Of a stretch of 64,000 nt of DNA, positions 15,169-63,293 are shown piece by piece (position 1 is the first letter of the stretch; each line of letters starts with the position of its first letter). This DNA is from a virus. The notes below the pieces were generated by a model, which made no database searches, had not been told where the DNA came from, and worked only from the letters and a program-made list of their open reading frames with translations. The stretch lies in IMG/VR virus record IMGVR_UViG_3300020462_000004, positions 3,393 to 67,392 of that record; one strand, given 5' to 3'. Made by a program: the position numbers and the translations under genes.

Positions 15169-16032
15169 CTAAGCTATACAGAATTCTAATCTTTGCTCTT
15201 TAGTTTGATTTGGTGTTCTTTTGATTCTTAAACCAGCAATATAAGTTTTATCATTGTTATCTAGTGGGCGAAAATCTGTTTTATCAGCATCAAATATATA
15301 ATATTTTTTGCTATCTATTATTATAAATTCTGGAAAATCTTGAGATTTTTTAATATCAAAAGCCGCTGCATAATTTAGTTTTAATTCTGTAGCTTTAGCA
15401 AGTGTATTAAATTTACTACCATGAGATAAAGTTAAATGGTAATTTAATTTTCTACATTTTTCCCAGTCTCTATCGATTCTCTTTGTATAATCGTACGCAA
15501 TTAATTTAGTACTAATTGATTGATTTAATTTAGTATCTAATCCTTTTAAAATAGCTTCTAAGATACTTGTATATCTAATTGGTTCGATATATACACCGAA
15601 TTGTTTTAACAGATAATCAGAATCATTTGAAGTAATAGTTACAGGCACATTTTCCCATGAATAGTCACTAGTACCATTAAGTCTTAAACCTAAATTTTTA
15701 TAGTCTCTATTTTTGGAATAAAAACGAATTGTTTCTAATACTAAATTTCTAAGAAATAAATTAAAATCTTGCATAAATGCATTATTCCTTCTTTGCCTAC
15801 ATTTAATTTTATTATTCAAATAAGCTGGGTTACCAGCCATATTTAAACAAATTTTTCTACAAGTCCCAGCGGCTGGGCATGCTTTAACAGTAGGCAATAA
15901 ATACAAAACCAAAGTAGGTGCATTTGATACAGTTAAATTTTTCATTACTTTAGGACTAGTTAAAGTAAATGTATTTGTACTGTTTAGATTCCATTTTGTA
16001 CGGAATTCTTTTAAATCGTTTGATAATTTCAT
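15169..16032 (-). CDS. Gene product 88 (GP88)-like protein
   Basis: CPAAGTCRKICL cysteine cluster, RLNGTSD and YDYTK motifs typical of the GP88 family. Confidence 0.75.
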   Translation of the reverse strand: MKLSNDLKEFRTKWNLNSTNTFTLTSPKVMKNLTVSNAPTLVLYLLPTVKACPAAGTCRKICLNMAGNPAYLNNKIKCRQRRNNAFMQDFNLFLRNLVLETIRFYSKNRDYKNLGLRLNGTSDYSWENVPVTITSNDSDYLLKQFGVYIEPIRYTSILEAILKGLDTKLNQSISTKLIAYDYTKRIDRDWEKCRKLNYHLTLSHGSKFNTLAKATELKLNYAAAFDIKKSQDFPEFIIIDSKKYYIFDADKTDFRPLDNNDKTYIAGLRIKRTPNQTKEQRLEFCIA

Positions 16033-23604: not shown

Positions 23605-25128
23605 ATGGCAGGTACAAGTATTTACAGCGTCTATAGACGCACAGCTAGAGCAGCTGCAAAACAACAGGTTGTTAAAAAAACTTCTAATGTAGATGTTGAA
23701 AAGGCTAGAAAAAATTTTGCATATTTTTGTGATGTTGTAGGGGGGAAGCCTCCAGCTGAACACCATCTTGAATGGCATAAATATCTCTGTACAGGTGATG
23801 ATAGTGTTTGTCTAAAAAGTATTGCCGGTCCAAATATAGATATACTTGCTCCAAGAGGATCTGCTAAATCTACAGTTTTAGGTTTATATACAGCCTGGTC
23901 TATTGGCATACATGCTTTAAATAAAATGCCTTTAAAAATTTTATATATTTCTTATACTGTTGATGTAGCTAGACCTAAGAGTGCAGCAATAAAAAGAATT
24001 ATCGAAGAGAGTAAAATTTATAAAGAAATTTTTCCGATGGTAAAGATTGCTAAGGGAATAAATTCTAACGAATATTGGAGTATAGATTGGAAATTTGCAG
24101 GAATAAAATCCACTGGTGAAGAAGAGTTCAGTGTATGTTGTGCTGGATTGAAAGGTGCAGTTACATCAAAAAGATCACACCTCTGCATAATTGATGACGC
24201 AATAAAAAGTTCAGACGATATTAAAAATAAAGACATAAGACAAGCTATGGAAGATAACTGGAATGCTGTTATTGTTCCAACTATGTTTGAAGGTGCAAGA
24301 GCTATTTGTTTAGGAACTAGATTTAGACATGATGATATTCACAGCACAACTTTCTTACCTTCTAGTGGATGGAAACAAATAGTACAATCTGCCATAACTG
24401 TAGATGAAGAAGGAGAAGAAACATCTTACTGGCCGGATATGTGGTCACTTGAATATTTAAGTGAAAGAAGAAGAACTGCTCCAGTTGCATTTAGTTTTCA
24501 ATATCAAAATCAAATTGTTCAGACTAGTGAATTATCTCTTTCTCCTGATCTGATTGTTAAAGGAACTATATCTACAGAGTTTGATACTTTAGGAGTTGGA
24601 GTAGATTTATCGGCTGGTGTTAGAGAACAAAATGATTATACAGTTTTTGTTATGGGTGGAAGAGTAAAAGATAAAATTCACATCATAGATTGTAAAAGAG
24701 TGAGAGTTATGGGGAATTTAGAAAAATTAGAACTTTTAATGGAAATGATGGAGGAGTGGGGAATAATTCATAAAGATGGAAAAAATTATTTTCCTACAGG
24801 TAGTTCAATAGATGTTTGGTCAGAAGCTGTTGCATATCAAGCTTCGTTAGAAGCAGATTTTAAAAGGATTTGTTTACAGGAACAAGGTTTATACAATTTA
24901 ATTTGGCATCCAGTAAAAGGTTTTCGTGGAGATAAAGTTGCAAGATTTCGAGGAATTATGGGACTTTTTGAACAAAGAAAAATCATTTTTAATAAATATC
25001 GAAAAATGACTTATTTAACAGATGAGATTGTAAATTTCGGGGTTAGCTCACATGATGATTGTGTAGATGCCTTAGTGTGGCTATGTAATGGGTTAATGAC
25101 TCGTGGAAAACTTGAGTTAGAGTATTGA
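23605..25128 (+). CDS. terL: Terminase large subunit
   Basis: Walker A APRGSAKST, Walker B IIDD, GTR motif, nuclease motifs GVDLS and HDDCVDAL. Confidence 0.95.
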   Translation: MAGTSIYSVYRRTARAAAKQQVVKKTSNVDVEKARKNFAYFCDVVGGKPPAEHHLEWHKYLCTGDDSVCLKSIAGPNIDILAPRGSAKSTVLGLYTAWSIGIHALNKMPLKILYISYTVDVARPKSAAIKRIIEESKIYKEIFPMVKIAKGINSNEYWSIDWKFAGIKSTGEEEFSVCCAGLKGAVTSKRSHLCIIDDAIKSSDDIKNKDIRQAMEDNWNAVIVPTMFEGARAICLGTRFRHDDIHSTTFLPSSGWKQIVQSAITVDEEGEETSYWPDMWSLEYLSERRRTAPVAFSFQYQNQIVQTSELSLSPDLIVKGTISTEFDTLGVGVDLSAGVREQNDYTVFVMGGRVKDKIHIIDCKRVRVMGNLEKLELLMEMMEEWGIIHKDGKNYFPTGSSIDVWSEAVAYQASLEADFKRICLQEQGLYNLIWHPVKGFRGDKVARFRGIMGLFEQRKIIFNKYRKMTYLTDEIVNFGVSSHDDCVDALVWLCNGLMTRGKLELEY

Positions 25129-39760: not shown

Positions 39761-40078
39761 ATGGGATTATCAGTTAATAATGATCTTGTAACTTTATCAA
39801 ATAATTTTGAAAGTCTTAAAGCAAAAGTTGAGGCTATCGAAATTATAGTTTATGGTGAAAAAGTTTTAGAACTAGATGATTCTTCTTGGGAAAATATTAG
39901 AAAAAAACGAGATTATATTTTAAAATCTACAGACTGGACTGTCACTCCAGGTTGTTCTGTTGATCAGGCTCAGTGGTCTGCTTACCGACAAAACCTTAGA
40001 GATATACCTCAAACATATACTGTAATTAATGACGTAGTTTGGCCTACTCAGCCATCTAAATTAGGACCTAATAGTTAG
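39761..40078 (+). CDS. Tail fibre assembly chaperone
   Basis: IRKKRDYILKSTDW...YRQNLRDIP...WPTQP. Confidence 0.8.
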   Translation: MGLSVNNDLVTLSNNFESLKAKVEAIEIIVYGEKVLELDDSSWENIRKKRDYILKSTDWTVTPGCSVDQAQWSAYRQNLRDIPQTYTVINDVVWPTQPSKLGPNS

Positions 40079-40145: not shown

Positions 40146-40886
40146 ATGCCATATATTGGAAATAATATTCGTTCTGCTGATGATTACAGATTAATTGATG
40201 ATGTAAGCAGTAGTTTTAACGGAAGCACTACGAGTTTTCCTTTACAAGTTTCAGGAGTTTCACCTGCACCTTTTCCAAAATCACCACAACAAGTCCTAAT
40301 ATCTGTAAACGGTGTTATTCAGGAACCTGATCCTACTGGAACTGCAGGATTTAATATTGTAGGAAATAATATAGTTTTTAGTTCAGCTCCAGCGAATGGA
40401 CAAGCATTTTTTGGAATAATATATGCAACAGCTGATTACATAAATGCAGGAGGAACATTTCCTGCTGGTTCGAGTAATCTTCCTTCTATAACTTTTTCTG
40501 CAGATACAGATACAGGATTATATAGAAAGGCATCTGGTACTGTTGGATTTGTTTCAGACGGTACTGAGGTAGGAAGTTTTGATAGTAATGGAATAAATAG
40601 TAGTGCACTGAATATAACAGGTACTGTCAGCAGTAATGCAATGAGTGTAACAGGCACCGTTACTGCAAATGCTTTTTCAGGAGATGGATCGTCCTTAACG
40701 AATTTACCATCATCAGGAGGTACAGTTGGTCCAGGAACTGAAAAGTTATTTGTTGAAGCAGAAAACCAAATGGATGCCAGTTTTGCGACACAACAAAATT
40801 TTAATTATGTAGCAGCAAGTCCTATGACTATTGCTTCAGGGGCTGTTCTTACAGTGAGTGCAAACTCTACCATGACGTTTGTCTAA
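40146..40886 (+). CDS. Tail fibre protein
   Basis: MPYIG...FNGSTTSF...VSVNGVIQEP; DTDTGLY repeat; FSGDGSSLT. Confidence 0.75.
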   Translation: MPYIGNNIRSADDYRLIDDVSSSFNGSTTSFPLQVSGVSPAPFPKSPQQVLISVNGVIQEPDPTGTAGFNIVGNNIVFSSAPANGQAFFGIIYATADYINAGGTFPAGSSNLPSITFSADTDTGLYRKASGTVGFVSDGTEVGSFDSNGINSSALNITGTVSSNAMSVTGTVTANAFSGDGSSLTNLPSSGGTVGPGTEKLFVEAENQMDASFATQQNFNYVAASPMTIASGAVLTVSANSTMTFV

Positions 40887-40907: not shown

Positions 40908-41603
40908 ATGTCAAAAGTTATTGTTGATGAAATCCAAACTGATACCACGAATGGGAATGTAAGAGTCATTCCTAATGGTACTGGAGCATTAGAGGTAAAA
41001 GGTGCTGGTGGTGATGATGCAATGCTTCAATTAAACTGCTCTGCCCAATCACATGGTGTAAAGATAAAATCCCCTGCTCATAGTGCTGGACAATCTTATA
41101 CAATGATTTTGCCTGATAATAACGTAACAGCAGACAAAGTTTTAAAAGTAAAAAGTATTACAGGTAGTGGAGCAACAGCAATCGGGCAGTTAGAGTTTGG
41201 TGATGCTGGGGATCTTTCTGGGTTACTTAAAGAAGGTGTGAAAATAACTGCTGGTAAATTAAGTGATAATTTAAATATTGATTTAGCAGATGGAATGGTT
41301 CATTATTTTACAACTCAAGAAACAACTACATCTACACCTAATATTAGATTCAGCAGTTCCGCTACTCTCGACTCTAATATGAGTGTTGGAGAAGCTATAT
41401 CAGTAACGCTTATCACAACTGCTGCAGCTGCTGCTTATTCTGCACAACTAACAATTGATGGTGCTGCGGTTACAGAGAATTGGGTTGGAGGGTCTGCTCC
41501 TTCGGATGGAGGTTCAAGTGGTGTTGATATTCACGCTTACACAATTATTAAAACAGGATCAGCAACTTTTACTGTAATTGCAAATCAAAGTAAAACATCA
41601 TAA
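40908..41603 (+). CDS. Tail fibre adaptor, cassette 1
   Basis: MSKVIVDEIQ start; C-terminal WVGGSAPS...GVD domain; 171-nt block shared with the 60801 gene. Confidence 0.7.
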   Translation: MSKVIVDEIQTDTTNGNVRVIPNGTGALEVKGAGGDDAMLQLNCSAQSHGVKIKSPAHSAGQSYTMILPDNNVTADKVLKVKSITGSGATAIGQLEFGDAGDLSGLLKEGVKITAGKLSDNLNIDLADGMVHYFTTQETTTSTPNIRFSSSATLDSNMSVGEAISVTLITTAAAAAYSAQLTIDGAAVTENWVGGSAPSDGGSSGVDIHAYTIIKTGSATFTVIANQSKTS

Positions 41604-41609
41604 TTCAAA

Positions 41610-42749
41610 ATGAAATTTGAGCATTCATTATATCAAAAGCCTTTGTCAATGACTGGGTTTGGTGGTGGTGCTACCTCACTTTCTGTTGCTGGTGCTGCTG
41701 GTGGTAATCCATTTGATAACATGAGTAATTTTCCTGGTGCAACTAGAGTTGGTACTACTAATGTAATTTATTACTCTAGTGCTGGAACTACATACTCATT
41801 TACAGATCCCAATGGAGGGGCATCAACATTCAGATTTACAGCGGTTGGTGGAGGTGGGTCATCAAATGGAGATGCTGGTGGTTGGTATGGAGTAATTGGC
41901 GGTGGCGGTGGCGGTGCTGCTAGAGGAGAAATACAGACTTCTCAAACATTAAATATCAATGTTGGTTATGGTGGGGGTAGTCCAGCTCAGGGAGGTCTTA
42001 CCGGAACTGCCGGTAATAATTCTACCTATGTCAGTGATAGTGTAACTGGACAGTTTAATAATTATGATCGTGTACGTGGAAGAGGTGGAGTTTCATATGT
42101 ATCAAATGCAACATCAGGTACTTGGTTAATTTATGGTACAGGCGGAATGCCAGGGCTATATGGATATCCCCCAACTGCTCAGGGAGATTTACAAAGTGCA
42201 CACTCCACTGGATATGGAGTTCGTAATGGTGGAAGAGGATTTTGGGAGAATGGTGGATATGGAACCATTGCTTCTGGCGGAGGTGTTACTGTAAATAATG
42301 GATCTACTGAAGCTGGTGGAACTGGTGGATGTGCTGCTCATAAAGATAGTGGTAGTTTAAGTTATACAAGACATCCTCTTGATTTGTATAATACATACTC
42401 AAGTCATGCCAGTTTTATAGCTACTGCTGGTCAAAATACTACATATGCTGGACCAGGAGGAGGGGGTGGTTCAGATTATGAAGAAAGTTATGAAAATGCA
42501 AGTCAAGTCAACACTAATGTAGCTGGTGCTGCAGGTGGAACTGCCTCTGGATTAAACACATTATTATCTGGGTCTGGGTTATCAAGTGCAGGTGGTAATG
42601 GTGCTAATTCAGGATCAAATGGGACTCAGGCAACTAGAGGTACAGTTGGAGGTGGTAGTGGAGGAAACTCTAGACACAATGCTAATAGTACTTGGGATGA
42701 TAATTTTGTTGAAGGAAATGGAATCATAATTGTAGAATATCTTGGATAA
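41610..42749 (+). CDS. Glycine-rich adhesin, cassette 1
   Basis: AVGGGG...GGGGGG motifs, aromatic-rich loops, ends GNGIIIVEY. Confidence 0.7.
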   Translation: MKFEHSLYQKPLSMTGFGGGATSLSVAGAAGGNPFDNMSNFPGATRVGTTNVIYYSSAGTTYSFTDPNGGASTFRFTAVGGGGSSNGDAGGWYGVIGGGGGGAARGEIQTSQTLNINVGYGGGSPAQGGLTGTAGNNSTYVSDSVTGQFNNYDRVRGRGGVSYVSNATSGTWLIYGTGGMPGLYGYPPTAQGDLQSAHSTGYGVRNGGRGFWENGGYGTIASGGGVTVNNGSTEAGGTGGCAAHKDSGSLSYTRHPLDLYNTYSSHASFIATAGQNTTYAGPGGGGGSDYEESYENASQVNTNVAGAAGGTASGLNTLLSGSGLSSAGGNGANSGSNGTQATRGTVGGGSGGNSRHNANSTWDDNFVEGNGIIIVEYLG

Positions 42750-42797: not shown

Positions 42798-43301
42798 ATG
42801 TCAACAATAAAGGTAGATGATATACAATCTAGGCAAAGTACAGATGATGCAATATCACTTGCGTCTGATTCTTCTGTTTCTCTAAAACACTCAGCATCCG
42901 CTAAATTAACTACGACAGCTACAGGCGTAAGTATTACTGGAGCGTGTTCTGCAACATCAGTTACAGCTACATCAGTTGAAGATTCAAAAGGAAATTTACG
43001 TTCTATTCCAAATAGAAATGAATCCTCAGCTTATACACTTGTAGCTGCTGATGCTGGTAAATGTATAACAGCTGATGATGGTGTGACTGTACCAGCCAAC
43101 GTGTTTGCTGCTGGCGATTTAGTAACAATTATCAATAATGCAGGTTCAGACAAAACAATAACCCAAGGATCAGGATTAACAATGAGAGATACAGGTAATG
43201 ATGGTGCTACTGGAAACGTATCTGTAAAAACATATTCAATGTCTACACTTCTTTTTATAAGTACAACTCTTTGTTATTTTTCAACCACTAATAAAGCATA
43301 A
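42798..43301 (+). CDS. Tail fibre adaptor, cassette 2
   Basis: MSTIKVDDIQ start; ASDSSVSLKHS...GVSITG shared with the 44500 gene; AYTLVAADAGK domain. Confidence 0.7.
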   Translation: MSTIKVDDIQSRQSTDDAISLASDSSVSLKHSASAKLTTTATGVSITGACSATSVTATSVEDSKGNLRSIPNRNESSAYTLVAADAGKCITADDGVTVPANVFAAGDLVTIINNAGSDKTITQGSGLTMRDTGNDGATGNVSVKTYSMSTLLFISTTLCYFSTTNKA

Positions 43302-43312
43302 AATTTTAAGTT

Positions 43313-44446
43313 ATGCCGAGTTCACAAATTTTATTAGCAACAACTAAATCTTCAGGCGTTGATCCAGTTGTTCCCTTTAACCTTACATTAAATGGACTAT
43401 ATACTTCAAACCCTAGGCTTGGAGACACTACTTCAGAGCAAAGTACTTGGTGGGGCACTCAAACTTATGATGCTGTTTTTGCTTCGAACATTGGACAGCA
43501 ATCATATCAGGGATTTTATGCATTTACAGCAGGAAAAAATGCTACATTGACCGCAACTTTGGGAGGTGCATCAGGGTGGGCTTATACTAGAGGTAGATCA
43601 ATAACTGCAACTTTTTCTATATCTGTAGGTGATCGAATTGTATTTTTTGCTGGCAAGTCTGGTAACACTGGAACAAACGCTAATCAAGGAGGAGCTGGAG
43701 GAGCAAGTTGTTTAATGAAATATGGTAGTTCACTTTCTAGTGATGCCGATTATGTAAATGGTTTTGTTCCTTTAATAATTGCAGCAGGAGGTGGAGGTGG
43801 AGATGTAGCTAATGGTTCACAAGCTAACGAATTAGCTTCCGCTGCACCACCATTATCAACTACGACAAGTAACACTGCTACTCAAATTATGGCTGTAAGA
43901 AACAATTTTTATCCAAGTGCAAATTTAGTTGCTAAACAGGGCGGTGCTGGAAGAGATGATAATGCTGGTGGGGGGTATATGGCACATACTGGAGGTAATG
44001 GCTGGGCAGGTCCATCTAGACATCACTTGACAGGAAATGCCACTGACATAAATCTTTCTGGCATAAGTTACCCAGCTGTAGGTATAGCTTATGGTGCAAA
44101 GGGAAATATTAAATTAGATGCTACTAGTGGCGATGGTGGTTTTGGTGGTGGTGGATCAGATTATGGGAACAATAGTTATGGTTCTGGTGGTGGAGGATAT
44201 TATGGTGGCAATGAAAGTGTAGGAGCTAATAGTATACTAAACAATGCTTACACTGCGTATACTTATTATGATGCTGCTGGTAATCAACACCAAACAGAAG
44301 GCGACATGAGACATGGTTCTTTATCTTTTGTACATAGTAGTGGAAGTAGTGTAACTGACAATGGACTCTATGGTGCTGGTTCTAATTATGGTGTCTCTAC
44401 ACTCTCTGGGCAACAACAAGGTAGAGTTTATTTATCATTTACATAG
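43313..44446 (+). CDS. Glycine-rich adhesin, cassette 2
   Basis: LIIAAGGGGG, GGFGGGG, GGGGYYGG; ends GRVYLSF. Confidence 0.7.
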   Translation: MPSSQILLATTKSSGVDPVVPFNLTLNGLYTSNPRLGDTTSEQSTWWGTQTYDAVFASNIGQQSYQGFYAFTAGKNATLTATLGGASGWAYTRGRSITATFSISVGDRIVFFAGKSGNTGTNANQGGAGGASCLMKYGSSLSSDADYVNGFVPLIIAAGGGGGDVANGSQANELASAAPPLSTTTSNTATQIMAVRNNFYPSANLVAKQGGAGRDDNAGGGYMAHTGGNGWAGPSRHHLTGNATDINLSGISYPAVGIAYGAKGNIKLDATSGDGGFGGGGSDYGNNSYGSGGGGYYGGNESVGANSILNNAYTAYTYYDAAGNQHQTEGDMRHGSLSFVHSSGSSVTDNGLYGAGSNYGVSTLSGQQQGRVYLSFT

Positions 44447-44499: not shown

Positions 44500-45060
44500 A
44501 TGTCAACAGTAAAAGTCGAAGAAATACAACATCCATCTAACTCTAATAATGCAGTATCTATTGCATCAGATTCAAGTGTTAGTCTTAAACATAGTGGATC
44601 TGCAAAGTTGGCAACTACATCAACAGGTGTAAGTATTACTGGAACATGTACTGCAACATCATTTAGTGGAGATGGTTCGGCATTGTCCCCTGCTCCAGCA
44701 GATGCAACAAAAATGCCATTAGCAGGCGGTACGTTTACAGGTTCAGTTACTTTTGAAGATGCTATAAATGAAACCGTATATGCTATCACTGATGCTGCAT
44801 CTGTAGCCCTAGATCCTGATAATGGAATGGTGCAGACATGGACATTAGGAGCAAATAGAACTGCAACTGATAGTTTAACTACAGGTCAATCTATGCTTCT
44901 TATAGTCACTGCAACTGCATCTGCCTATACTTTGACTTGGCCTACTATGAAGTGGAACGGTGGGTCTGCTCCTACACTTGGCGGTGCTAACGCTACAGCA
45001 ATAGAATTATTTAAAGTAGGTAGTCAATTATATGGAGCTTCAGTTGGAGATCTTTCATGA
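44500..45060 (+). CDS. Tail fibre adaptor, cassette 3
   Basis: MSTVKVEEIQ start; C-terminal WNGGSAPTL domain. Confidence 0.7.
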   Translation: MSTVKVEEIQHPSNSNNAVSIASDSSVSLKHSGSAKLATTSTGVSITGTCTATSFSGDGSALSPAPADATKMPLAGGTFTGSVTFEDAINETVYAITDAASVALDPDNGMVQTWTLGANRTATDSLTTGQSMLLIVTATASAYTLTWPTMKWNGGSAPTLGGANATAIELFKVGSQLYGASVGDLS

Positions 45061-45923
45061 CATTATCGCACCAACTTCGTGCTGCTGCTGGTAATAGTGG
45101 AGGAGGAGCTGCAACTCCTGTATTTCACTATGATTTCGGTGATACTTCTTCTTGGGATGGAAGTAGTACCACAATAAACGATTTATCTGGTAATGGAAAT
45201 AATACTTCTTTTAGTAATACAAATGGTCTATCGAGAAGTCCTATTGGTTCTGCTTTTACCCTTTTATCAAGTACTGATTATTGTGTTAATAGAGGTACTT
45301 ATACCACGCCCTCTGGTGTTGGAAACAGTGTAGGAACAGGAGATTACGCAATTCAATTTGTGTGGAATGTTTATCTACGCCCTCATGGAGCTAATTATTA
45401 TTATTCCACTCAACAAATGCGTCTTTTGAACAATAGTAGTGGAAGTCCTGGATTTAGTTGGCTTGAAGGTGGTCTACTGTGGATTACTGGTGTATCTGGT
45501 AATTCCTATACTCCTGCATTCCCTACTGCTCACAATGCAGCTAGTAATGCTTCTCCTGCACATACAGTAAATGCACCTTATCCTTCAACACCAGCGACAT
45601 ATACTTCAGGGTCACCACATAGAAATTCATCTCCTTATTATGGTTATTTTGGTTGGGAACATGTAATTATCACAAGAAGATCAGGAACTTTATATGTTTA
45701 TAAAAATGGCACTCAAACCGCAAGTTATGTTAATAATGATAATTATACTACTTTTGGAGGGGCTACGGTTTTAGGTACTGGTGGGTTTACTGCTGCTAAT
45801 TATTGTGGATATAACAATTGGTTTTTAGGAGGATTAGCAATACACAAATTCTTTGATGTAGGATTAACTGATGCACAAGTAACGGCTATTTTCGATTCAG
45901 AAAAATCTCGTTTCAGTTTATAA
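45057..45923 (+). CDS. LamG/concanavalin-like lectin tip protein, cassette 3
   Basis: DLSGNGNN, WEHVIITR...LYVYKNG, LTDAQV...KSRF motifs. Confidence 0.7.
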   Translation: MTLSHQLRAAAGNSGGGAATPVFHYDFGDTSSWDGSSTTINDLSGNGNNTSFSNTNGLSRSPIGSAFTLLSSTDYCVNRGTYTTPSGVGNSVGTGDYAIQFVWNVYLRPHGANYYYSTQQMRLLNNSSGSPGFSWLEGGLLWITGVSGNSYTPAFPTAHNAASNASPAHTVNAPYPSTPATYTSGSPHRNSSPYYGYFGWEHVIITRRSGTLYVYKNGTQTASYVNNDNYTTFGGATVLGTGGFTAANYCGYNNWFLGGLAIHKFFDVGLTDAQVTAIFDSEKSRFSL

Positions 45924-45939
45924 CAGTTAAAATATTATT

Positions 45940-46392
45940 ATGGAATACGCAATCATTGAAAATACAGCTGGTGGTACACCTACTGTAAAAAGCACTGGAA
46001 GTATTCAAGAGTTATTTCCTAATACAAGTTTCACCGCCTCTGGGCCTAATGCAAATTTTTTAGCAGAAAATAGTGTTGTTGAATTTGTAAAAACTCTAAG
46101 TTATACTTCACCGACACAAAAATTGGTTCCAGTAGAACCTTATATAGATAGTAGTAAAGTTTACAATGTCAAAGTAGAATCTACTACTACAGATGAACAA
46201 GCTGCTCTTACTAACACCCAATGGCAACTTGTAAGAACAGAAAGAAATGTTTTATTAGAACGAACAGATTGGAGAGCTGGTAGTGATTTAACTATTTCGG
46301 ACGAATGGAAGACCTATCGCCAAGCTCTTAGAGATGTTCCTACACAATCTGATCCATTCAACATTACTTGGCCTACAGAACCAGTGGCATAA
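45940..46392 (+). CDS. Tail fibre assembly chaperone
   Basis: VRTERNVLLERTDW...YRQALRDVP...WPTEP. Confidence 0.8.
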   Translation: MEYAIIENTAGGTPTVKSTGSIQELFPNTSFTASGPNANFLAENSVVEFVKTLSYTSPTQKLVPVEPYIDSSKVYNVKVESTTTDEQAALTNTQWQLVRTERNVLLERTDWRAGSDLTISDEWKTYRQALRDVPTQSDPFNITWPTEPVA

Positions 46393-46435: not shown

Positions 46436-47692
46436 ATGGCATACATAGGGACAGAACCTAATTTCCTAAATCAGAATAGGGAGGTTGATGATATAAGCGG
46501 TAGTTTTAACGGAAGTACTACGACTTTTAACTTACAAGTTTCTGGTCAGAATGTAAATCCAGAAAGTGTAAATAATATTTTAGTTTCTGTTGGTGGTGTA
46601 TTACAAAATCCAGGAACGGATTATACGATTAATGCAGCCACTATAGTTTTTGCAACAGCTCCAGCTAGTGGATTAGATTTTTGGGGATTGATATTAGGTG
46701 AATTAGTCAATATTGGATCTGTATCTGATGGAACAATAACAACGTCAAAAATTCTTGATGATGCTGTGACTGCTGGTAAATTAGCAGACACGTCAGTTAC
46801 TGCTGGTAGTTATACAAATGCAAGTATTACAGTTGATGCACAGGGAAGACTCACAGCAGCCTCTTCTGGCTCTGGAGGAGGAATAACTGTACAAGATGAA
46901 GGTAGTGCGTTATCTACAGCTGCAACTACTCTAGATTTTGTTGGTGCTGGTGTCACTGCATCTGGTACTGGTGCGTCTAAAACAATTACAATTCCAGGTG
47001 GAGGAATTTCAGGTATCGATGTACAGGATGAAGGTAGTGCGTTATCTACAGCTGCGACTACTCTAGATTTTGTTGGTGCTGGTGTCACTGCTTCTGGTAC
47101 TGGAGCTTCTAAAACAATTACTGTACCGGGCGGTGGTGGTGGTATGGAATTGATAAGTGCAACAGAAGTGACAAACAGTGCTACTACAGTAGATTTAACG
47201 GGGTTTTCAACTAATACTATGTATCAAATAGTTGGGATGTTAGATATGAATTATGGTGGGCTAACAAGTACTACTGGAAATGCTTCATATTCCACAACAT
47301 TATATATGCAAGGTTATATAGGTAGTAGTCGGCAAACTGGTTCAGTCCATGCCATGAAATATTCCTACGGTAATAGTACTTGGGCTAATTCAAGCGAATC
47401 TTCTTGGAAATGGTATGCCGATAGTAATTATAGGTACATGATTTTTTATCTTGATTTTTCTACATACTCACCTTCTGGTTTACATGGACGTGGTTATTAC
47501 ATAGGTCAAAACAGATCTCCTAACAATTTGGCTACTGGTACTATGTATACTAGTATTAGTGAAACAGAAGTTTGGTTTCAGTATATGCCATCAGTATTTA
47601 CTTCTAACCTTTCAGGATTAAGGTTTTTCAACAGTCAAGGATCTTCGTTCCAAAATAGTAAATTCTTACTTTACAAATACAAGGAGAGTTAA
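46436..47692 (+). CDS. Tail fibre protein, cassette 4, with an internal 132-nt duplication
   Basis: N-terminus paralogous to the 40146 gene; VQDEGSALSTAATTLDFVGAGVTASGTGASKTIT twice (46888, 47020). Confidence 0.75.
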   Translation: MAYIGTEPNFLNQNREVDDISGSFNGSTTTFNLQVSGQNVNPESVNNILVSVGGVLQNPGTDYTINAATIVFATAPASGLDFWGLILGELVNIGSVSDGTITTSKILDDAVTAGKLADTSVTAGSYTNASITVDAQGRLTAASSGSGGGITVQDEGSALSTAATTLDFVGAGVTASGTGASKTITIPGGGISGIDVQDEGSALSTAATTLDFVGAGVTASGTGASKTITVPGGGGGMELISATEVTNSATTVDLTGFSTNTMYQIVGMLDMNYGGLTSTTGNASYSTTLYMQGYIGSSRQTGSVHAMKYSYGNSTWANSSESSWKWYADSNYRYMIFYLDFSTYSPSGLHGRGYYIGQNRSPNNLATGTMYTSISETEVWFQYMPSVFTSNLSGLRFFNSQGSSFQNSKFLLYKYKES

Positions 47693-47974
47693 ATGAACAA
47701 GTATGTAAACGGTGTATTAGTTGAAATGACTGATGCAGAAATCGCAGAATTTAATGCGAGTCTACCAACAGATGCTGAACGTCTTGCAGAATCATGGCTA
47801 CAGGTAAGAAACTATAGAAATCGTTTATTGTTAGAGACAGATTGGGTAGCAGCAAGAGCATCTGAAACAGGAGTTGCTGTAAGTGACGATTGGAAAACCT
47901 ATCGCCAAGCTCTTAGAGATGTCCCAACACAATCCGATCCAAATAATATTACATGGCCTACAAAGCCTAGTTAA
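47693..47974 (+). CDS. Tail fibre assembly chaperone
   Basis: RNRLLLETDW...YRQALRDVP...WPTKP; 3' DNA nearly identical to the 45940 gene. Confidence 0.8.
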   Translation: MNKYVNGVLVEMTDAEIAEFNASLPTDAERLAESWLQVRNYRNRLLLETDWVAARASETGVAVSDDWKTYRQALRDVPTQSDPNNITWPTKPS

Positions 47975-57383: not shown

Positions 57384-58094
57384 ATGTCAAGTTTTTTTGG
57401 AGGGGGATCATCACCACAAATTATGATTCCTGATCAGCAAAAATCAAAAGCATTTCAGACTATAATACCGCAACAGACTTTTCAAAATGCAGCGGAATAC
57501 ATGGGAAGATTGGATGATGAATACAATAGAACACTTGATAGACAATATGATCAAGTAGGAACTTCTGCCGAAATGGGAGCTAGAGCAAAAGGAAGACAGC
57601 TGCAAGGCCGTTCATCTTATCTATCATCATTACCATATACTGCTGGACAAGATGTAAGAGATGTAGCAGAAACAAGAGAAGGTGATGCAAAACTTGCTTA
57701 TAAAGATGCTTTAGACAGAGCTAAAACGTCTGAGCGTAAATACGCACCTGTAACTAAATCAGGATTTGATAGCAGGCAATATTTAGAAAATTATCGAGAT
57801 CTAAGAGATGCTTTTGGTAATGATTTAGAAAAAGCTAAACAACATTATATAGACTTTGGAAAGGATGAAGGCAGAACTGATGAAGATATTCATGGATTAA
57901 ATAAAGGAGTACCAGGCTTTGCTAGATCTACTGAATCTTCATTTCTCCCAAGAGAAGCAAATGTAACTAATGCAACTAATGCAACTAATGCAACTCAGTC
58001 CAACATTGATGAAACTCAGTCCAAGCAAATAGAAGATTTATATAAAAAATATCAACCTAAGACCGCCTATAGTTATATGAATAAAGAAAACTAA
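57384..58094 (+). CDS. Probable virion protein with one YLxxYxDLxxAFGxD module
   Basis: FDSRQYLENYRDLRDAFGNDLEKAKQHYIDFGKDEGRTD; 9-nt AATGCAACT microrepeat near 57960-57995. Confidence 0.7.
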   Translation: MSSFFGGGSSPQIMIPDQQKSKAFQTIIPQQTFQNAAEYMGRLDDEYNRTLDRQYDQVGTSAEMGARAKGRQLQGRSSYLSSLPYTAGQDVRDVAETREGDAKLAYKDALDRAKTSERKYAPVTKSGFDSRQYLENYRDLRDAFGNDLEKAKQHYIDFGKDEGRTDEDIHGLNKGVPGFARSTESSFLPREANVTNATNATNATQSNIDETQSKQIEDLYKKYQPKTAYSYMNKEN

Positions 58095-58788: not shown

Positions 58789-59904
58789 TTAAGTTTGTTT
58801 ATTCCTATCTCTATGATACTGCAGAATATTTTCGTGATGAAGTTTAATGTCTTTAATAGATTTACATTCAGGTATTTCTTTTACACCTTTAATCATCAAA
58901 TGCTTAGGATTACAGCAAAATGCTGTGCATTCTGGTTTATTAAAAATACGATATTTACCTGTATATCCACGACTTAGCCAAAAAGCAATACGTGGAGCAG
59001 ATTGTGTTTTACCTGAGTGAAAAGGAGAGGGAAAATATGCAGTAGATTCTGTCCCATTTTTTCTAGTAGCTCCTTGCCATACCCAACAATCATCTTCTTC
59101 TTTAATATCTACTTGTTCCCAAAACCTCTTTACTTGCCAATACCATTTCATTTCGAATTCTCTAACATCTACTGTGCATCTAGCTTTTTTTATTTCTTCC
59201 ATACAATCAAGGCACTCTCCCATTAATCCAAAGTTACCTTTATGTTTGTTAGTTCCTTGTATATGCCAAGGACATTCGTAGTGTTGAGTTTCTGTCACGA
59301 CTCCTCTAAAATTTTTTGCTTCATTTGGATGAGCTCTCATTAAATTTACACAAGTGTCTGAGAGATTTGACCAAATCTTTTCCTCATTATATTGATCTTC
59401 TTTATCTTCGACATTCTCATATGTCTCTCCAGAACAAATTCTTCTTACTGAATGATATGGTAAACGATAATGTTTAGATAATTTTCTACTACTTACACCA
59501 CTTTGATTTTCGTTTCTCAACTTAGTTATTAAGTCAATATTTATAGATTTTTCACTAACTTTTGCATTTTCATAAGCTACATCTTTTCTTGTTCCCCAAT
59601 AGTAATGAGAAGGGTTAAGACAAAATTGAGATTCACATTCACTTCTTTTTACAATTATTGGTTCTTCTTCCGAATAATTTCTTCCTGTCATATTTAATAT
59701 TAGAGGTCTAGCATCATGTCCTTTATACATAAGTTTTGTTTTTTTACTTGTAGTAAAACCTTTAAATCCAGCATTATTCATCTTCGTCAGACACCAACAA
59801 GATTCTTTACCAAAGTGTTCTAAAGCTGTTTGAAAAGCTCGTACAAATAATATTTGATCATATGCAGTCAGATTCTTATATAAGAATGCATCACTATTCT
59901 TCAT
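58789..59904 (-). CDS. Tandem His-Me finger (HNH-like) protein with a central HTH
   Basis: CW...CLNPSHY and CWVWQG...CCNPKHL domains; SSRKLSKHYRLPYHSVRRI HTH; likely start MKNSD at 59904. Confidence 0.7.
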   Translation of the reverse strand: MKNSDAFLYKNLTAYDQILFVRAFQTALEHFGKESCWCLTKMNNAGFKGFTTSKKTKLMYKGHDARPLILNMTGRNYSEEEPIIVKRSECESQFCLNPSHYYWGTRKDVAYENAKVSEKSINIDLITKLRNENQSGVSSRKLSKHYRLPYHSVRRICSGETYENVEDKEDQYNEEKIWSNLSDTCVNLMRAHPNEAKNFRGVVTETQHYECPWHIQGTNKHKGNFGLMGECLDCMEEIKKARCTVDVREFEMKWYWQVKRFWEQVDIKEEDDCWVWQGATRKNGTESTAYFPSPFHSGKTQSAPRIAFWLSRGYTGKYRIFNKPECTAFCCNPKHLMIKGVKEIPECKSIKDIKLHHENILQYHRDRNKQT

Positions 59905-59964
59905 GCAAAGTAGGGGGTAGGTGTACTCGTAAGCATACATCCCTTTAATAGCAATGGCAATCGT

Positions 59965-60283
59965 TGAACACCCAAATACCAAAAAATTTTCTCTATTTAT
60001 ATTACTTTTATAGAGGATGAGGTTAGGTATATGACTGTTTTACTTTATATACACTCACTTACCTAACCACCGCATACATGAAGATAAGTAAAATGCTATT
60101 ATTTTTTAGGAACTTGGGTGTTCATAGTAAACCTCAGTCATACAAATCTATTTGAAACGCAAAGTACAAATATTTGCACTAACCCTACCACTATTTTTTG
60201 ATAAAAAATGCGGAAAAAGTTTTTTAAGGTTTTGGGTTAGGTAGATGACTGTTTAAAAAAGGTATACACTCATGTATCTAGTC
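59965..60283. repeat. Nested inverted repeats plus a second direct copy of the inner element
   Basis: TGAACACCCAA 59965-59975 / TTGGGTGTTCA 60114-60124; GGTTAGGTA 60021-60029 / TACCTAACC 60060-60068; second copy 60235-60283. Confidence 0.8.
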
Positions 60284-60333
60284 TCAAAGTCTTGTCGATG
60301 ATATTATTTAAATAACAACTTTTGTAAATATAA

Positions 60334-60570
60334 ATGCCAGGATACCCAATGCAAGGAGGATTTGATCAATCTGGATTAAATGATGTGGTTGATCCGACTA
60401 GACAATCAAGATTACCAGGTGGTTATGCTACTCAGGGACAGGCAGTCAGTGCTCCTTATGGTCAAGCTATGAAAGAAGCAGCTTCGAAAACTAATCCTAT
60501 GAATGCTAAATCACAAGAAACACCAGTAGGTGATAGAGTTGATGATTTTTTAAATAGAATGGGTGCATAA
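60334..60570 (+). CDS. Hypothetical protein
   Basis: ORF track. Confidence 0.6.
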   Translation: MPGYPMQGGFDQSGLNDVVDPTRQSRLPGGYATQGQAVSAPYGQAMKEAASKTNPMNAKSQETPVGDRVDDFLNRMGA

Positions 60571-60757
60571 AATGGGAGATAATGATTTTCCAGCTGTAAT
60601 GGCAAATGGAGGAGGTAAAAATTTTTTATCAGGTTTTGTTAAAGGAATGAGTAAATATAGTCAATCAGGAACAGATATAGATGACTTTGAAATTGAAAGA
60701 GAATATGAGCAAGATTTAGGGAAACCTATGATAGAAACAGTGAGATTTCGTAAATAA
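60563..60757 (+). CDS. Hypothetical protein
   Basis: ORF track. Confidence 0.55.
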   Translation: MHKMGDNDFPAVMANGGGKNFLSGFVKGMSKYSQSGTDIDDFEIEREYEQDLGKPMIETVRFRK

Positions 60758-60800
60758 AGTTATCGTAAAATTGATTTAACAATCAAGTTTTCAAATATAA

Positions 60801-61697
60801 ATGACACAGACTAAAGCACAGTTAGTAGATCTATCAGTAGAAGGTGTAAATGCTAATAATTTAAATTCTGGTACTATACCAGATGATAGATTCCCTGCAG
60901 TTTTACCAGCTGTGTCAGGTGCAAATTTAACAAATTTACCTGCAGGAGGTCTTAGTAATGTTGTTGAAGACACCACTCCGCAACTTGGTGGAAATTTAGA
61001 CGTATTAACGAGAGAAATAACTACAAGCACAAGTAATGGAGATATAGTATTTACTCCAGATGGAACAGGAATTATAAAGATAAAAGGTGCAGGGTCTACA
61101 GACGGTACCCTCCAATTAAACTGCTCGGCACAATCACATGGTGTGAAGCTAAAGTCACCTGCTCATAGTGCAGGGCAATCTTACACTATGGTTTTACCAG
61201 ACAACCAGATAGCAGCAGACAAGTTTTTGAAGGTGAAAAGTATAACAGGAAGTGGTGCAACTGCAGTAGGGCAGCTGGAATATTCTGGGGTAAGTGTCTT
61301 TGAACCTAATGTTTTGCAAGAGTCATTTCATAATGACACAAATGCTATTACTGGTACATATAATCATGACATTTTAACCTATGGGATGGTATGGAATGGA
61401 TCAACTAATGCTTCTGGTGCTTTTACTTTTAATATAAGAGGAGATTCGAGCACTACATTTGATAGTTTAATAAGCACTGGTAAAGTCACGACAATGACAA
61501 TATTTTCTGCGAATAATAATACTTCATATTATATGTCTGCTTTTCAAATTGATGGATCAACCCAAACTGTAAAATGGGCAGGTGGATCTGCACCATCAGC
61601 TGCTGAGGGTAGCGGTGTGGATGTCTACTCTATGACGATAATGAAAACTGCTACAAATACTTATTCAGTATTTGGTAATTTAACTAACTTTGCTTGA
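60801..61697 (+). CDS. Tail fibre protein, cassette 5
   Basis: DTTPQLGGNLD; LQLNCSAQSHGVK block shared with the 40908 gene; WAGGSAPS...GVD domain. Confidence 0.75.
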   Translation: MTQTKAQLVDLSVEGVNANNLNSGTIPDDRFPAVLPAVSGANLTNLPAGGLSNVVEDTTPQLGGNLDVLTREITTSTSNGDIVFTPDGTGIIKIKGAGSTDGTLQLNCSAQSHGVKLKSPAHSAGQSYTMVLPDNQIAADKFLKVKSITGSGATAVGQLEYSGVSVFEPNVLQESFHNDTNAITGTYNHDILTYGMVWNGSTNASGAFTFNIRGDSSTTFDSLISTGKVTTMTIFSANNNTSYYMSAFQIDGSTQTVKWAGGSAPSAAEGSGVDVYSMTIMKTATNTYSVFGNLTNFA

Positions 61698-62590
61698 TGA
61701 AAGAAAATTTTAAAAAAGAAAGTCCTATTTTATCTTTACCGAGTCTTGGTGGTGGAGCTAATGCACCTTCGGTAGCAGGAGGAGGAGGAGGAGGTCAAGA
61801 CGAATACACATCTCATGGAACTTATACATGGACTTGTCCTGCTGGGGTTACTTCAGTTTCTGTGGTATGTGTTGGTGCTGGGGGAACAATGGCAATGGGA
61901 TCCTATGGTACTGGAGGTGGTTCATTGGCCTATAAAAACAATATAACTGTAACTCCCGGACAGAATTATACGATTATTGTAGGTCAGACAAATACTTCAT
62001 CTAACGTACAATATGCTAATAATAGTAGTGCATTTGGTACGGTAGCCTATGGTGGTTACACTGGGGCACATACTTTTTATAATCAAAGTCAAGGTATAGG
62101 TCAAAACTATGACGGAGGAGGACAAGGAGGTATAGGAACTACTGACTATTATTCAGGAACAACTGGTTATCAATCAGGATCAGGGGGAGGTGCCGGTGGC
62201 TATAGCGGAAACGGAGGGAATGGTGCAAATGGCACTACCGCTGGTGGTAATGGCAGCGGAGGCGGAGGCGGAGGAGGAGGCCACGCACAAAATCCGTCCA
62301 AAGCAGCAGGTGGCGGAGGAGTTGGTCTACAAGGGGAAGGATCAAGTGGTGCCGGAGGTCTTTGGTCTTCAACACCTGCCGATACTGTAGGACATGGTGG
62401 TTCTGGTGGAACTGATTCTGATCAAGTTGACACTACTTCACTTTATGCTTACGGTGGTGAGTATGGTGGTGGCTCTGGCCAAATTAATTCTTTTAGCTCT
62501 GCTAATTTTAGTAAGCAAAGTGGAGCAGTAAGGATCATATATCCTGGCACTGACAGACAATTCCCATCAACACGCACAGCAGACGAGTAA
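61694..62590 (+). CDS. Glycine-rich adhesin, cassette 5
   Basis: TWTCPAGVTSVSVVCVGAGG...GAVRIIYPG. Confidence 0.75.
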   Translation: MMKENFKKESPILSLPSLGGGANAPSVAGGGGGGQDEYTSHGTYTWTCPAGVTSVSVVCVGAGGTMAMGSYGTGGGSLAYKNNITVTPGQNYTIIVGQTNTSSNVQYANNSSAFGTVAYGGYTGAHTFYNQSQGIGQNYDGGGQGGIGTTDYYSGTTGYQSGSGGGAGGYSGNGGNGANGTTAGGNGSGGGGGGGGHAQNPSKAAGGGGVGLQGEGSSGAGGLWSSTPADTVGHGGSGGTDSDQVDTTSLYAYGGEYGGGSGQINSFSSANFSKQSGAVRIIYPGTDRQFPSTRTADE

Positions 62591-62592
62591 TT

Positions 62593-62865
62593 ATGAGTAT
62601 CTACAAATTTGAAACAACCACCATTGATTCATTTGAGGCAGTTGTAAAATCACGAGAATACGATCAAGTTGATTTGTCAGAAGTAACAAAAATGACTGGA
62701 ACTCATGCGTCTTTAAGATTTATTATGGCTGATGATATATTTTTAAATAAATCATCTGTAAACATTGCTATTATTAATAATAATGATGATCCAGAAGGGA
62801 AGATGGAAGAGTATATTACTGAGTTAAAAAGTGCCACAAGTGGTAATGTTGAAAAACTAGCTTAA
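62593..62865 (+). CDS. Hypothetical protein, possibly cassette-associated
   Basis: ORF track. Confidence 0.55.
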   Translation: MSIYKFETTTIDSFEAVVKSREYDQVDLSEVTKMTGTHASLRFIMADDIFLNKSSVNIAIINNNDDPEGKMEEYITELKSATSGNVEKLA

Positions 62866-62890
62866 GATAAAATAAATATCTTTTTTTTAT

Positions 62891-63121
62891 ATGCAGATAG
62901 TAAATTTTTTTCTATCTAAACCATCTGTTTACACTCTTCCCGGAACTTGGGAAAAACAACCTTTAATAAAACATGGTAATTATGCTGGATTGCCACCAGA
63001 AGGTCAGATAGTTGCTATCATTTTGATACTGCTATTTTTAGTCACAGGATATGGACTATATGTAGCATTTGGACCACCTAATAAAAAATTAACTGATCCT
63101 TGGGATGAGCACGACGATTAA
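62891..63121 (+). CDS. psbN: PsbN-like photosystem II assembly factor with an N-terminal extension
   Basis: TM helix followed by TGYGLYVAFGPPNKKLTDPWDEHDD (cf. PsbN TGYxLYTAFGxPSxxLxDPFEEHxD). Confidence 0.8.
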   Translation: MQIVNFFLSKPSVYTLPGTWEKQPLIKHGNYAGLPPEGQIVAIILILLFLVTGYGLYVAFGPPNKKLTDPWDEHDD

Positions 63122-63179
63122 AGCAATATTAAAGTTTATTATTATTTTTTCTGGTGTAGTTACTTTTTTCGAGTTTTTT

Positions 63180-63293
63180 TCAATTTTCTTTTAATTTTTT
63201 AAATAAATGAGTGGAATTTGTTATCTGCTCTTCTTTTTTTCTACAGTGTTCACAGTTACATTTACAGTGAGGACATTCACACTTATTTTGCAT
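63180..63293 (-). CDS. Cys/His-rich microprotein (37 aa)
   Basis: Manual translation MQNKCECPHCKCNCEHCRKKEEQITNSTHLFKKLKEN. Confidence 0.5.
   Translation of the reverse strand: MQNKCECPHCKCNCEHCRKKEEQITNSTHLFKKLKEN

Follow-up and report, generated by a model that had tools for sequence, protein, structure and literature searches.

A putative two-protein tail fibre in a polymorphic slot beside psbN of an uncultured marine cyanophage

Why does a phage with a cluster of tail-fibre genes carry a further fibre-like gene set far from that cluster, beside psbN? The question is raised by IMG/VR virus record IMGVR_UViG_3300020462_000004, a linear viral record of 67,392 bases (CheckV completeness 79%), of which bases 3393-67392 were analysed. 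This 64,000-nucleotide (nt) stretch is called the window here, and all further coordinates refer to it. A preliminary description pointed to an orphan fifth fibre cassette at 60801-62865 and offered two accounts of it: an extra fibre, or a reservoir that swaps tips with the first cassette of the tail cluster. We find it likely that the locus is a complete accessory two-protein tail fibre and that its position, with two small genes on one side and psbN on the other, is a polymorphic expression slot. The matter bears on host range, the least predictable trait of marine phages.

By its sequence, the window is most of a 67-kb record from an uncultured marine cyanophage related to Synechococcus phage S-EIVl. 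Its large terminase (23605-25128) shares 67% amino acid (aa) identity with that of S-EIVl in the isolate collection, where one further match stands at 21%. An uncultured marine lineage of ~86 kb, with S-EIV1 as closest isolate, has been described (bioRxiv 10.1101/325100) and is not equated here with the present record; in the available text of that preprint, the recognised structural proteins are the terminase, portal, capsid and putative tail proteins, and no others.

The locus and its paralogue in the tail cluster

The stem, the tip and a gene of 90 aa make up the locus, and psbN follows them:

60801..61697, + strand: stem gene, 298 aa, matching phrog_31104 at residues 52-164 and phrog_5906 at residues 163-297
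60801..61001, + strand: N-terminal extension of the stem (aa 1-67), constant in all slot alleles and missing from the tail-cluster paralogue
61002..61283, + strand: conserved block region (aa 68-161), which contains the 171-nt block 61110-61280
61160..61172, + strand: putative crossover zone between slot alleles, from an identity profile and split trees
61284..61697, + strand: candidate socket domain (aa 162-298) with the motif WAGGSAPS, the first part of the variable segment
61284..62899, + strand: variable segment (socket, tip and small gene), from blastn of seven relatives
61697..62590, + strand: tip gene, 297 aa, whose ATG at 61697 overlaps the stop codon of the stem as TGATG
61697..61780, + strand: putative plug peptide (tip aa 1-28), MKENFKKESPILSLPSLGGG..., found in 8 records before at least four unrelated tip bodies, and 98-100% identical in DNA to L008 up to ~61779
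62593..62865, + strand: 90-aa gene, after the G5-type tip in 3 of the 3 records seen (the window, L008 and L091)
62891..63121, + strand: psbN, the conserved right flank (Pfam PsbN 1.4e-15; 93-96% aa identity in L008, L010, L012, L013 and L015)
63209..63230, + strand: terminator-like hairpin with a T run, downstream of psbN, where a transcription unit 60334-63121 may end (weak, as the region has four terminator-like sites and 2.4 +/- 1.6 are expected)

The tail cluster holds four fibre-like sets, the first of which includes the paralogue of the stem:

40908..42749, + strand: fibre-like set, cassette 1
42798..44446, + strand: fibre-like set, cassette 2
44500..46392, + strand: fibre-like set, cassette 3
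46436..47974, + strand: fourth fibre-like set
40908..41603, + strand: stem paralogue of cassette 1, 231 aa, with its block at 41025-41195
41610..42749, + strand: cassette 1 tip, a glycine-rich protein of 379 aa that has a plug type to itself, MKFEHSLYQKPLSMTGFGGG, and no Pfam or PHROG family match

These four sets agree with counting the locus as a fifth cassette, and the separation of about 13 kb given in the preliminary description was measured as 12.8 kb from the end of the last fibre-chaperone gene of the tail cluster, at 47974. Its account of the sequence itself was also borne out. The colinear blocks at 61110-61280 and 41025-41195 share 80.1% DNA identity over 171 nt and encode nearly the same peptide (50 of 57 residues), far beyond chance, and both lie in frame in + strand genes. 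The 34 differences between them fall 8, 0 and 26 on codon positions 1, 2 and 3, none at the second. Over 226 residues the 298-aa and 231-aa proteins are 49% identical (E 7e-66), and both match phrog_31104 in the block part and phrog_5906 in the C-terminal WxGGSAPS domain, the related domain that had been noticed after each block. The two glycine-rich genes further downstream (61694/61697-62590 and 41610-42749) were described as different adhesins, and they have no similarity by BLASTP (best E 25); the proteins have only an N-terminal motif in common, ...P(I)LSLPSLGGG... in one and ...PLSMTGFGGG... in the other. The cassette 1 tip was also tried as a member of the orphan-tip family and rejected: against the G5 profile, hhalign gave E 0.14 and a probability of 0.4, so that the openings are alike but not significantly so.

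Two block copies in one genome could mean that the locus is a spare store of tips, trading with cassette 1 through the shared block. The copies are colinear and in the same orientation, and chimeras of stem types do occur in metagenomes (P0126, P0127, P0143, P0146 and L009), as such trading would have it. We nevertheless regard this as very unlikely. The longest exact run common to the two stem genes is 14 nt (three such, at 61113, 61131 and 61158, all in the 5' third of the block, the same third as the putative crossover described below), and third-position identity across the ~94 aligned codons of the block region is 49%. In the block tree, the orphan-slot group of 8 rows is supported at 100/99 and excludes the tail-cluster copy, while the rows outside this group form no single resolved clade. 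Because of the short exact matches, the separate tree groups and the low third-position identity, the two copies appear to be old paralogues with no sign of recent exchange between them. The right sides of the two cassettes have no sequence in common for a second crossover, and with the blocks in direct orientation a single crossover would be expected to delete ~20 kb. Searched with the 298-aa protein, the full record of 67,392 bases gave these two copies only.

The stem also starts from a codon of its own, its N-terminal part is constant, and the alleles of relatives resemble cassette 3 and other sets, not cassette 1. The slot is therefore best read from its sequence as a polymorphic fibre locus in its own right and not as a silent reservoir; the trading with cassette 1 that the preliminary description proposed finds no counterpart in these data. 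Full-length orthologues of the stem (P0121-P0125) are 73-95% identical to it. Its N-terminal extension, for which the structural model is of low confidence, is kept at 75-93% identity in P0121-P0125, P0134, P0136 and P0139; among the other proteins of the window, the first 70 residues found nothing better than a spurious antisense frame (E 0.011). The AlphaFold2 model is confident for the C-terminal domain only, which is all beta with a predicted local distance difference test score (pLDDT) of ~90 at residues 175-298.

The tip can be modelled with more confidence. A form of 297 aa is found at 100% identity in P0001, and a model built from 60 of the 120 listed hits has a pLDDT of 87 and a predicted template modelling score (pTM) of 0.85. 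Against the fibre of cyanophage Pam3 (7ypx_A), this model gives a VIA Z of 13.6, with 178 residues aligned at a root-mean-square deviation of 3.4 and 24% identity, and Foldseek returns E 4.7e-5. Further fold matches are a Bxb1 tail-tip chain (Z 9.3) and the glycine-rich domain of ALK (9.1), the next unrelated row standing at 4.0. The predicted tip thus has the architecture of the Pam3 type, a TNF-like beta-sandwich followed by a glycine-rich domain. In the available text on Pam3, the TNF-like domain and the glycine-rich domain of its fibre gp24 are described as the receptor-recognising end (PMC9608196). The first 28 residues of the tip are unstructured in the monomer model (pLDDT <50), and a baseplate-docking helix like that of Pam3 gp24 is not predicted there. 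As a separate observation, two IMG/VR contigs (L001 and L003) encode giant proteins of 1390-1398 residues, 30-34% glycine, with tandem copies of the G5-type glycine-rich domain.

The product of the 90-aa gene is probably an assembly factor for this type of tip. It belongs to a family of 18 clusters, all of 57-90 aa, and follows the G5-type tip wherever this was seen. Against Pfam and PHROG it has no match, so that it does not resemble the Tfa chaperone of Pam3 in these families; the window genes at 39761, 45940 and 47693 do match tail-fibre assembly families, at 1e-17 to 1e-20.

Slot alleles and recombination joints

Is the locus the same in related genomes? When IMG/VR was scanned with the stem protein, 198 of 227 candidate stretches proved to be relatives, and 80 loci were retained from them. 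Gene-by-gene examination covered L008, L009, L010, L012, L013, L014, L015, L019 and L021, together with L091 from the metagenome scan. In L008, L010, L012, L013, L015, L021 and L091, the flanking genes are kept in order, most of them at 90-100% aa identity. Between these flanks the genes are intact and in the same place, which favours the extra fibre of the preliminary description (at least seven related records), and they come as four kinds of content:

Window, L008 and L091: A-type socket, glycine-rich tip and 90-aa gene
L010 and L012 (and L014, with the right flank only): socket with 88-90% aa identity to that of the cassette-3 stem (44500-45060), an unrelated tip of 259 or 290 residues, and a Tfa-like chaperone that shares 62-76% identity with window 45940-46392
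L013: socket resembling that of cassette 3, a tip with 58% identity to a lectin-like protein of the window (45057-45923), and the chaperone
L015 and L021: a further socket type, a glycine-rich tip of 320 residues, and a chaperone

The edges of the replaced segment are sharp. Homology by blastn to the window locus ends at 61283 in L010, L012, L013 and L014 and at 61273 in L015 and L021, and it restarts at 62900, nine bases into psbN, in L010, L012, L013 and L015; for L014 and L021, blastn reported no DNA match on the psbN side. L008 aligns to the window locus throughout. The filling of the slot can be recognised elsewhere in the window:

44731..45085, + strand: socket of the cassette-3 stem and the first ~10 codons of its tip, homologous to the psbN-side slot filling of L010, L012, L013 and L014

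To this part of the window the filling is 85-88% identical in L010, L012 and L014 by blastn, and L013 is 76% identical over 44731-46382.

The left joint lies inside the block. In steps of 30 nt, the identity of L010, L012, L013 and L014 to the window is mostly 90-100% as far as ~61170 and 53-80% between there and 61283; from 61172 the mismatches come at every third base, and past 61283 there is no homology. Trees were also made of the block cut at 61170, with 17 copies from 13 sources. The tree of the 5' part joins the eight rows of orphan-slot type in a single clade (100/100), the window being 94-97% identical to L010, L012, L013 and L014. In the tree of the 3' part, these four group with L019 (96/92) at 68-74% identity to the window, while the window pairs with L008 (97/90) at 99%. 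The conflict between the trees, together with the identity profile, therefore indicates that the 3' two-thirds of the block is carried along with the variable set and that the crossover took place in the 5' third. L015 drops in identity later, near 61200, which suggests a separate event.

A second joint is seen against L008, the nearest relative at this locus. Here the DNA is 95-100% identical to ~61780, 35-72% to ~62820 and 93-97% after that; at the protein level, identity is 96% for the stem, 53% for the tip, 70% for the product of the 90-aa gene and 96% for psbN. The left edge of this joint coincides with the first run of GGA/GGT glycine codons (61778-61797), a run that recurs in the tip gene in three more imperfect copies (75-90%). 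Natural chimeras of the stem tell of similar joins: P0126 and P0127 have a B-like head with an A-type C-domain, P0143 and P0146 have an A-type block with a B-type C-domain, and among the 120 listed protein matches several join the block of one stem type to the socket of the other, or either to unrelated parts.

Could the locus be an ordinary old duplicate of a tail-fibre gene pair, placed elsewhere and undergoing no special exchange? The deep divergence of the two copies in the window fits such an origin, and so does the stability of the window allele, which is identical in contigs of three other studies. Set against this are the four contents and sharp breakpoints of relatives whose flanks are 90-100% identical and the conflicting trees of the two block halves, while contigs that span both flanks in several samples speak against flanks joined by assembly. 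We rate the old duplicate as very improbable, the polymorphic fibre slot being the better account. The divergence pattern that was named in advance as a sign of old, independent duplication is seen between the two copies in the window; chimeras and replaced alleles occur among the relatives. The comparison across relatives that had been proposed also gave a divided answer on tip swapping by homologous recombination through the block: it fits exchange between relatives, whose alleles diverge from a crossover at ~61160-61172, and not exchange with cassette 1.

The window allele itself is found with 0 differences across both joints in Logan contigs from runs of the three other studies:

61009..62208: contig from X4
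60897..62039: contig from X9
60729..61307 and 61327..62290: contigs from X6

Since these identical contigs span the joints, the allele does not appear to be an assembly artefact; contigs of this kind cannot show rare variants and are silent on recombinants. Summed Logan depth is higher at the flanks and psbN than in the cassette (X6 and X9), although such depths cannot rank the parts of a stretch, and a depth peak at 62219-62319 stems from the glycine-codon repeats.

Signs of switching within one genome were also sought. A reverse transcriptase (PF00078) and a serine invertase (PF00239) were not found in the present record (G000, 79% complete) or in a relative that is 96% complete (G001), and near the tip no long direct repeat was found of the kind expected for a diversity-generating retroelement. 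Between 59900 and 63400 there are no substantial flanking inverted repeats, the best being 37 nt at 73%, and all fibre sets lie on the + strand.

The left side of the slot has features of its own. A direct repeat of 37 nt (70%), at 60303-60339 and 60770-60806, ends in AAATATAAATG, an 11-mer with two exact matches only in the window, and its ATG starts the genes at 60334 and 60801; the repeat may be a common promoter or leader element of the two genes. A promoter scan, with 16 sites against 16.5 expected, is uninformative. In the gene at 60334-60570, a patch at 60346-60525 is 55-78% identical in DNA to L008 amid 95-97% identity, and the 78-aa product is 65-67% identical in most relatives and 99% in L012. 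Judging by these identities, the patch marks a second, small site of variation, which lies just upstream of the fibre slot. The intergenic stretch 59990-60335, between the minus-strand HNH endonuclease gene and the gene at 60334, holds repeated units (60006-60068 and 60220-60280) that pair into a long stem with a minimum free energy of -71 kcal/mol (z -2.1), equalled by 1 of 100 shuffles and without an Rfam match. The endonuclease gene (58789-59982, minus strand) encodes a 397-aa protein whose C-terminal part is HNH-like (phrog_1872, 1.7e-12); it is 91-99% identical at the same place in all syntenic relatives, most of whose frames are 24 codons longer at the N terminus. Further out, a 236-aa protein (57384-58094, minus strand) varies between 44 and 98% identity among relatives and shares a segment of 39-76 residues with a 465-aa protein encoded at 2607-4004 (minus strand), and a 287-aa protein (15169-16032, minus strand) matches Pfam GP88 (PF17338, 3.9e-15). 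The window gave no Rfam family and no tRNA.

Sockets, plugs and a pool of modules

If tips are exchanged, how would a new tip be held by an old stem? All loci but L004-L007 and L095 were scanned for genes with one of the window's four socket types at their end, and the start of the gene after each was read. The 41 stems found are distributed as follows:

A-type socket: followed by the A-peptide (MKENFKKESPILSLPSLGGG...) in 7 of 8, the miss being a socket of 34% identity
B-type socket: followed by its own peptide (MKQDYWTYNKPLSMTGFGGG...) in 9 of 11, the two misses carrying a third, similar peptide
C2-type socket: followed by its own peptide in 8 of 8
C3-type socket: followed by its own peptide in 14 of 14

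Cross pairs, in which a socket is followed by the peptide of another type, number 0 among the 41. Past ~10-30 residues the tip bodies differ widely; those that begin with the A-peptide range from 245 to 1115 residues (the tip of L009 runs off its contig) and include at least four unrelated bodies. Pairs that are inherited together in front of differing bodies are the pattern that a non-covalent docking interface would produce, and from this pattern we infer that the plug binds the socket. Prediction of a complex between three copies of stem residues 140-298 and three of tip residues 1-40 gave a score of 0.01 against a mark of 0.32, which counts neither way.

The same modules turn up in other places and orders. 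Relatives with 90-99% identity in their core tail genes are very unlike one another in the fibre part of the tail cluster, and the number of genes that bear the block is two in the window, three in G003 and four in G001 (82.5 kb). G002, whose flanks are 98-100% identical to those of the window, has in its psbN-side slot a C3-type socket, which in the window belongs to the tail cluster, and has a B-type socket after a different N-terminal part. L019 encodes a fusion between an A-type stem (57% aa identity over stem residues 12-288) and the N-terminal 150 residues from a homologue of the window tail fibre at 40146, and in L009, an otherwise unrelated phage, a stem of B architecture with an A-type socket (80%) and an A-peptide tip comes after a fibre protein of 713 residues. 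Since tail clusters of relatives, and those of unrelated marine phages too, contain the same modules, a single module pool appears to supply both the slot and the tail cluster. Two observations concern the step before the stem. The stems of cassettes 1-3 have a common N-terminal start resembling MSxxKVDEIQ (window 42798-44446 and 44500-46392; L088, L089 and L090), and in L009 the C-terminal part of the gene that precedes cassette 1 (40146-40886) is found again ahead of stems of the MSxxKVDEIQ type. They hint at a third docking step, from anchor to stem, and hence at chain fibres of three proteins.

As a whole, the stem protein is matched by 59 isolate phage records. Matches through the block part (e.g., H6-H14, H26 and H29-H40) are annotated tail fibres of pelagiphages and cyanopodoviruses, and those from roseophages cover the socket part. 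Alignment A2, made of the two window proteins and 55 of the 120 listed hits, gave a profile that matches residues 700-748 of the 1079 of fibre gp28 of cyanopodovirus P-SCSP1u (PDB 8i4m_e), E 8.5e-19. At the DNA level, window 60000-63200 found no match among isolated phages. A multi-cassette fibre region was not seen in the annotation table of S-EIVl, whose tail-region entries are nearly all hypothetical and whose sequence was left unsearched for block and sockets. A limited literature search found no published account of the block or the slot, which is not proof of absence.

It is possible, if doubtful, that the block and the plug-socket pairs form a common connector standard by which receptor-binding tips pass among marine phages that differ in family and host (S-EIVl-like cyanophages, T7-like cyanophages, pelagiphages and roseophages), the slot being a dedicated landing site in which captured tips are put on a constant stem and expressed. 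In that event, the lineage would have a fifth, freely exchangeable specificity with its tail cluster untouched.

Proposed exchange and known systems

On the gene structure, predicted folds, allele replacement and breakpoints established in this analysis, a mechanism can be proposed. The stem would be built from a constant N-terminal part, the junction block and, at its C terminus, a beta-sandwich domain acting as a socket. The first ~28 residues of the tip would be the plug that fits it, and the TNF-like, glycine-rich body would bind the receptor, as in the receptor-binding end of the Pam3 fibre; the fibre would be present in the virion, and the 90-aa gene product would probably be the assembly helper of the tip. 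Host specificity would be changed in the population and not in the single genome, through homologous recombination between co-infecting relatives. Two units of exchange are suggested by the joints. Socket, tip and helper may be replaced together, with one crossover in the block (~61160-61172) and the second in or beyond psbN. Alternatively, the tip body and helper may be replaced alone, with a crossover after the plug at the glycine-codon run (~61780) and a second close to where the 90-aa gene ends (~62820).

Several points weigh against this proposal. The phage is known from metagenomes alone, and a role as a fibre is assigned by homology to the virion fibres of P-SCSP1u and Pam3. About 8 of the 80 loci were read by eye, the remainder entering the automatic scan only. 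The independent crossovers in the block may be as few as two, because the C3-type alleles (L010, L012, L013, L014 and L019) may share one recombination event. In the pairing, 3 of the 41 stems do not fit, and since the records are related, the trials not independent and the motif patterns written after the data had been seen, the pairing is a pattern and not a statistical test. By sequence, the profile of the tip family found nothing among solved structures at E up to 0.01, and the tip stays below the cut-off of PF21722 (Gly_rich_2), at 22.5 bits versus 24.3 (residues 39-282, profile positions 1-224 of 226). Because PF21722 is precomputed on many close homologues (e.g., P0011, P0012 and P0018) and the tip matches phrog_4474 at 2.8e-47, its sequence places it as a borderline scorer rather than an outsider.

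The remaining points concern the stem and lead to a different explanation, a fibre or spike on the head or neck instead of the tail. The stem lacks the N-terminal anchor domain of the tail-cluster fibre proteins at 40146 and 46436, the locus is distant from the tail genes, and the fold of the socket is matched best by the Pa223 capsid spike, in its C-terminal part (Z 7.0), and next by a KP1 baseplate chain (5.9) and residues 79-180 of CBA120 TSP4 (5.7/5.4); Foldseek gave weak matches to T4 gp9 and gp10 (E 0.39-0.9). All of these Z scores, 5.4-7.0, lie below the clear level of the tool and within its background range, that of the capsid spike included. Block and socket types are found in the tail clusters of the phage and its relatives, the block is part of the P-SCSP1u tail fibre, and L019 fuses an A-type stem to a tail-fibre anchor. 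We therefore hold a head or neck position to be improbable and keep to the accessory tail fibre.

The slot gives a readable grammar of fibres for this lineage, namely stem, junction block, socket, plug and tip, with breakpoints mapped to ~ten bases. Block and psbN together could serve as a marker for counting the tip alleles of a population in long-read viromes, and the pairs of socket and plug might be used for grafting tips in cyanophage work.

The swapping of tail-fibre modules is well known from the mosaic fibres of T-even phages (gp37/gp38), P2, Mu and P1, in which conserved motifs flank variable receptor-binding parts. The present locus is like them in having conserved coding stretches as joints, a glycine-rich run at a joint and a chaperone that goes with the tip. 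It differs in that two proteins with a co-inherited plug and socket are involved, in that the slot lies beside psbN away from the tail genes, and in its lineage, that of uncultured cyanophages related to S-EIVl. The G segment of Mu and the C segment of P1 are invertible host-range segments, in which a constant N-terminal fibre part is likewise joined to alternative C-terminal parts with their own chaperones. Here, no invertase was found in the records searched, the best inverted repeat is the imperfect one given above, all sets lie on one strand, and the switch would take place between genomes and not within one. TSP4 of phage CBA120 carries other spikes by its N-terminal domains. That protein is a branched tail-spike adaptor with T4 gp10-like domains (PDB 7rej and 7rfv). 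The socket gives a weak alignment with its residues 79-180 (Z 5.4-5.7), without likeness in sequence, and the binding of a tip by the socket is put forward here as a proposal.

The closest likeness for the tip is with Pam3 gp24/gp25 (PDB 7ypx and 7yfw; PMC9608196, as far as its available text goes), which has a TNF-like/glycine-rich tip body and a small gene after the tip. There, gp24 has an N-terminal helical domain with which it docks to the baseplate, whereas here a peptide of ~28 residues stands in front of the body and a separate stem protein precedes the tip; gp25 is Tfa-like, and the 90-aa gene has no likeness to Tfa in Pfam or PHROG. For the stem, the fibre protein gp28 of P-SCSP1u (PDB 8i4m; PMC10575957) has the same block, ~330 residues before its C-terminal end, in the single long polypeptide of a T7-like phage. 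According to the available text of that report, the distal fibre, in which the block lies, is unseen in the map, and the block is thus without a solved structure. Set beside these systems, what is new here is the lineage, the slot far from the tail genes, the mapping of two joints and the pairs of plug and socket that are inherited together; the principle of swapping was already known, and the gain is one of detail and lineage rather than of concept.

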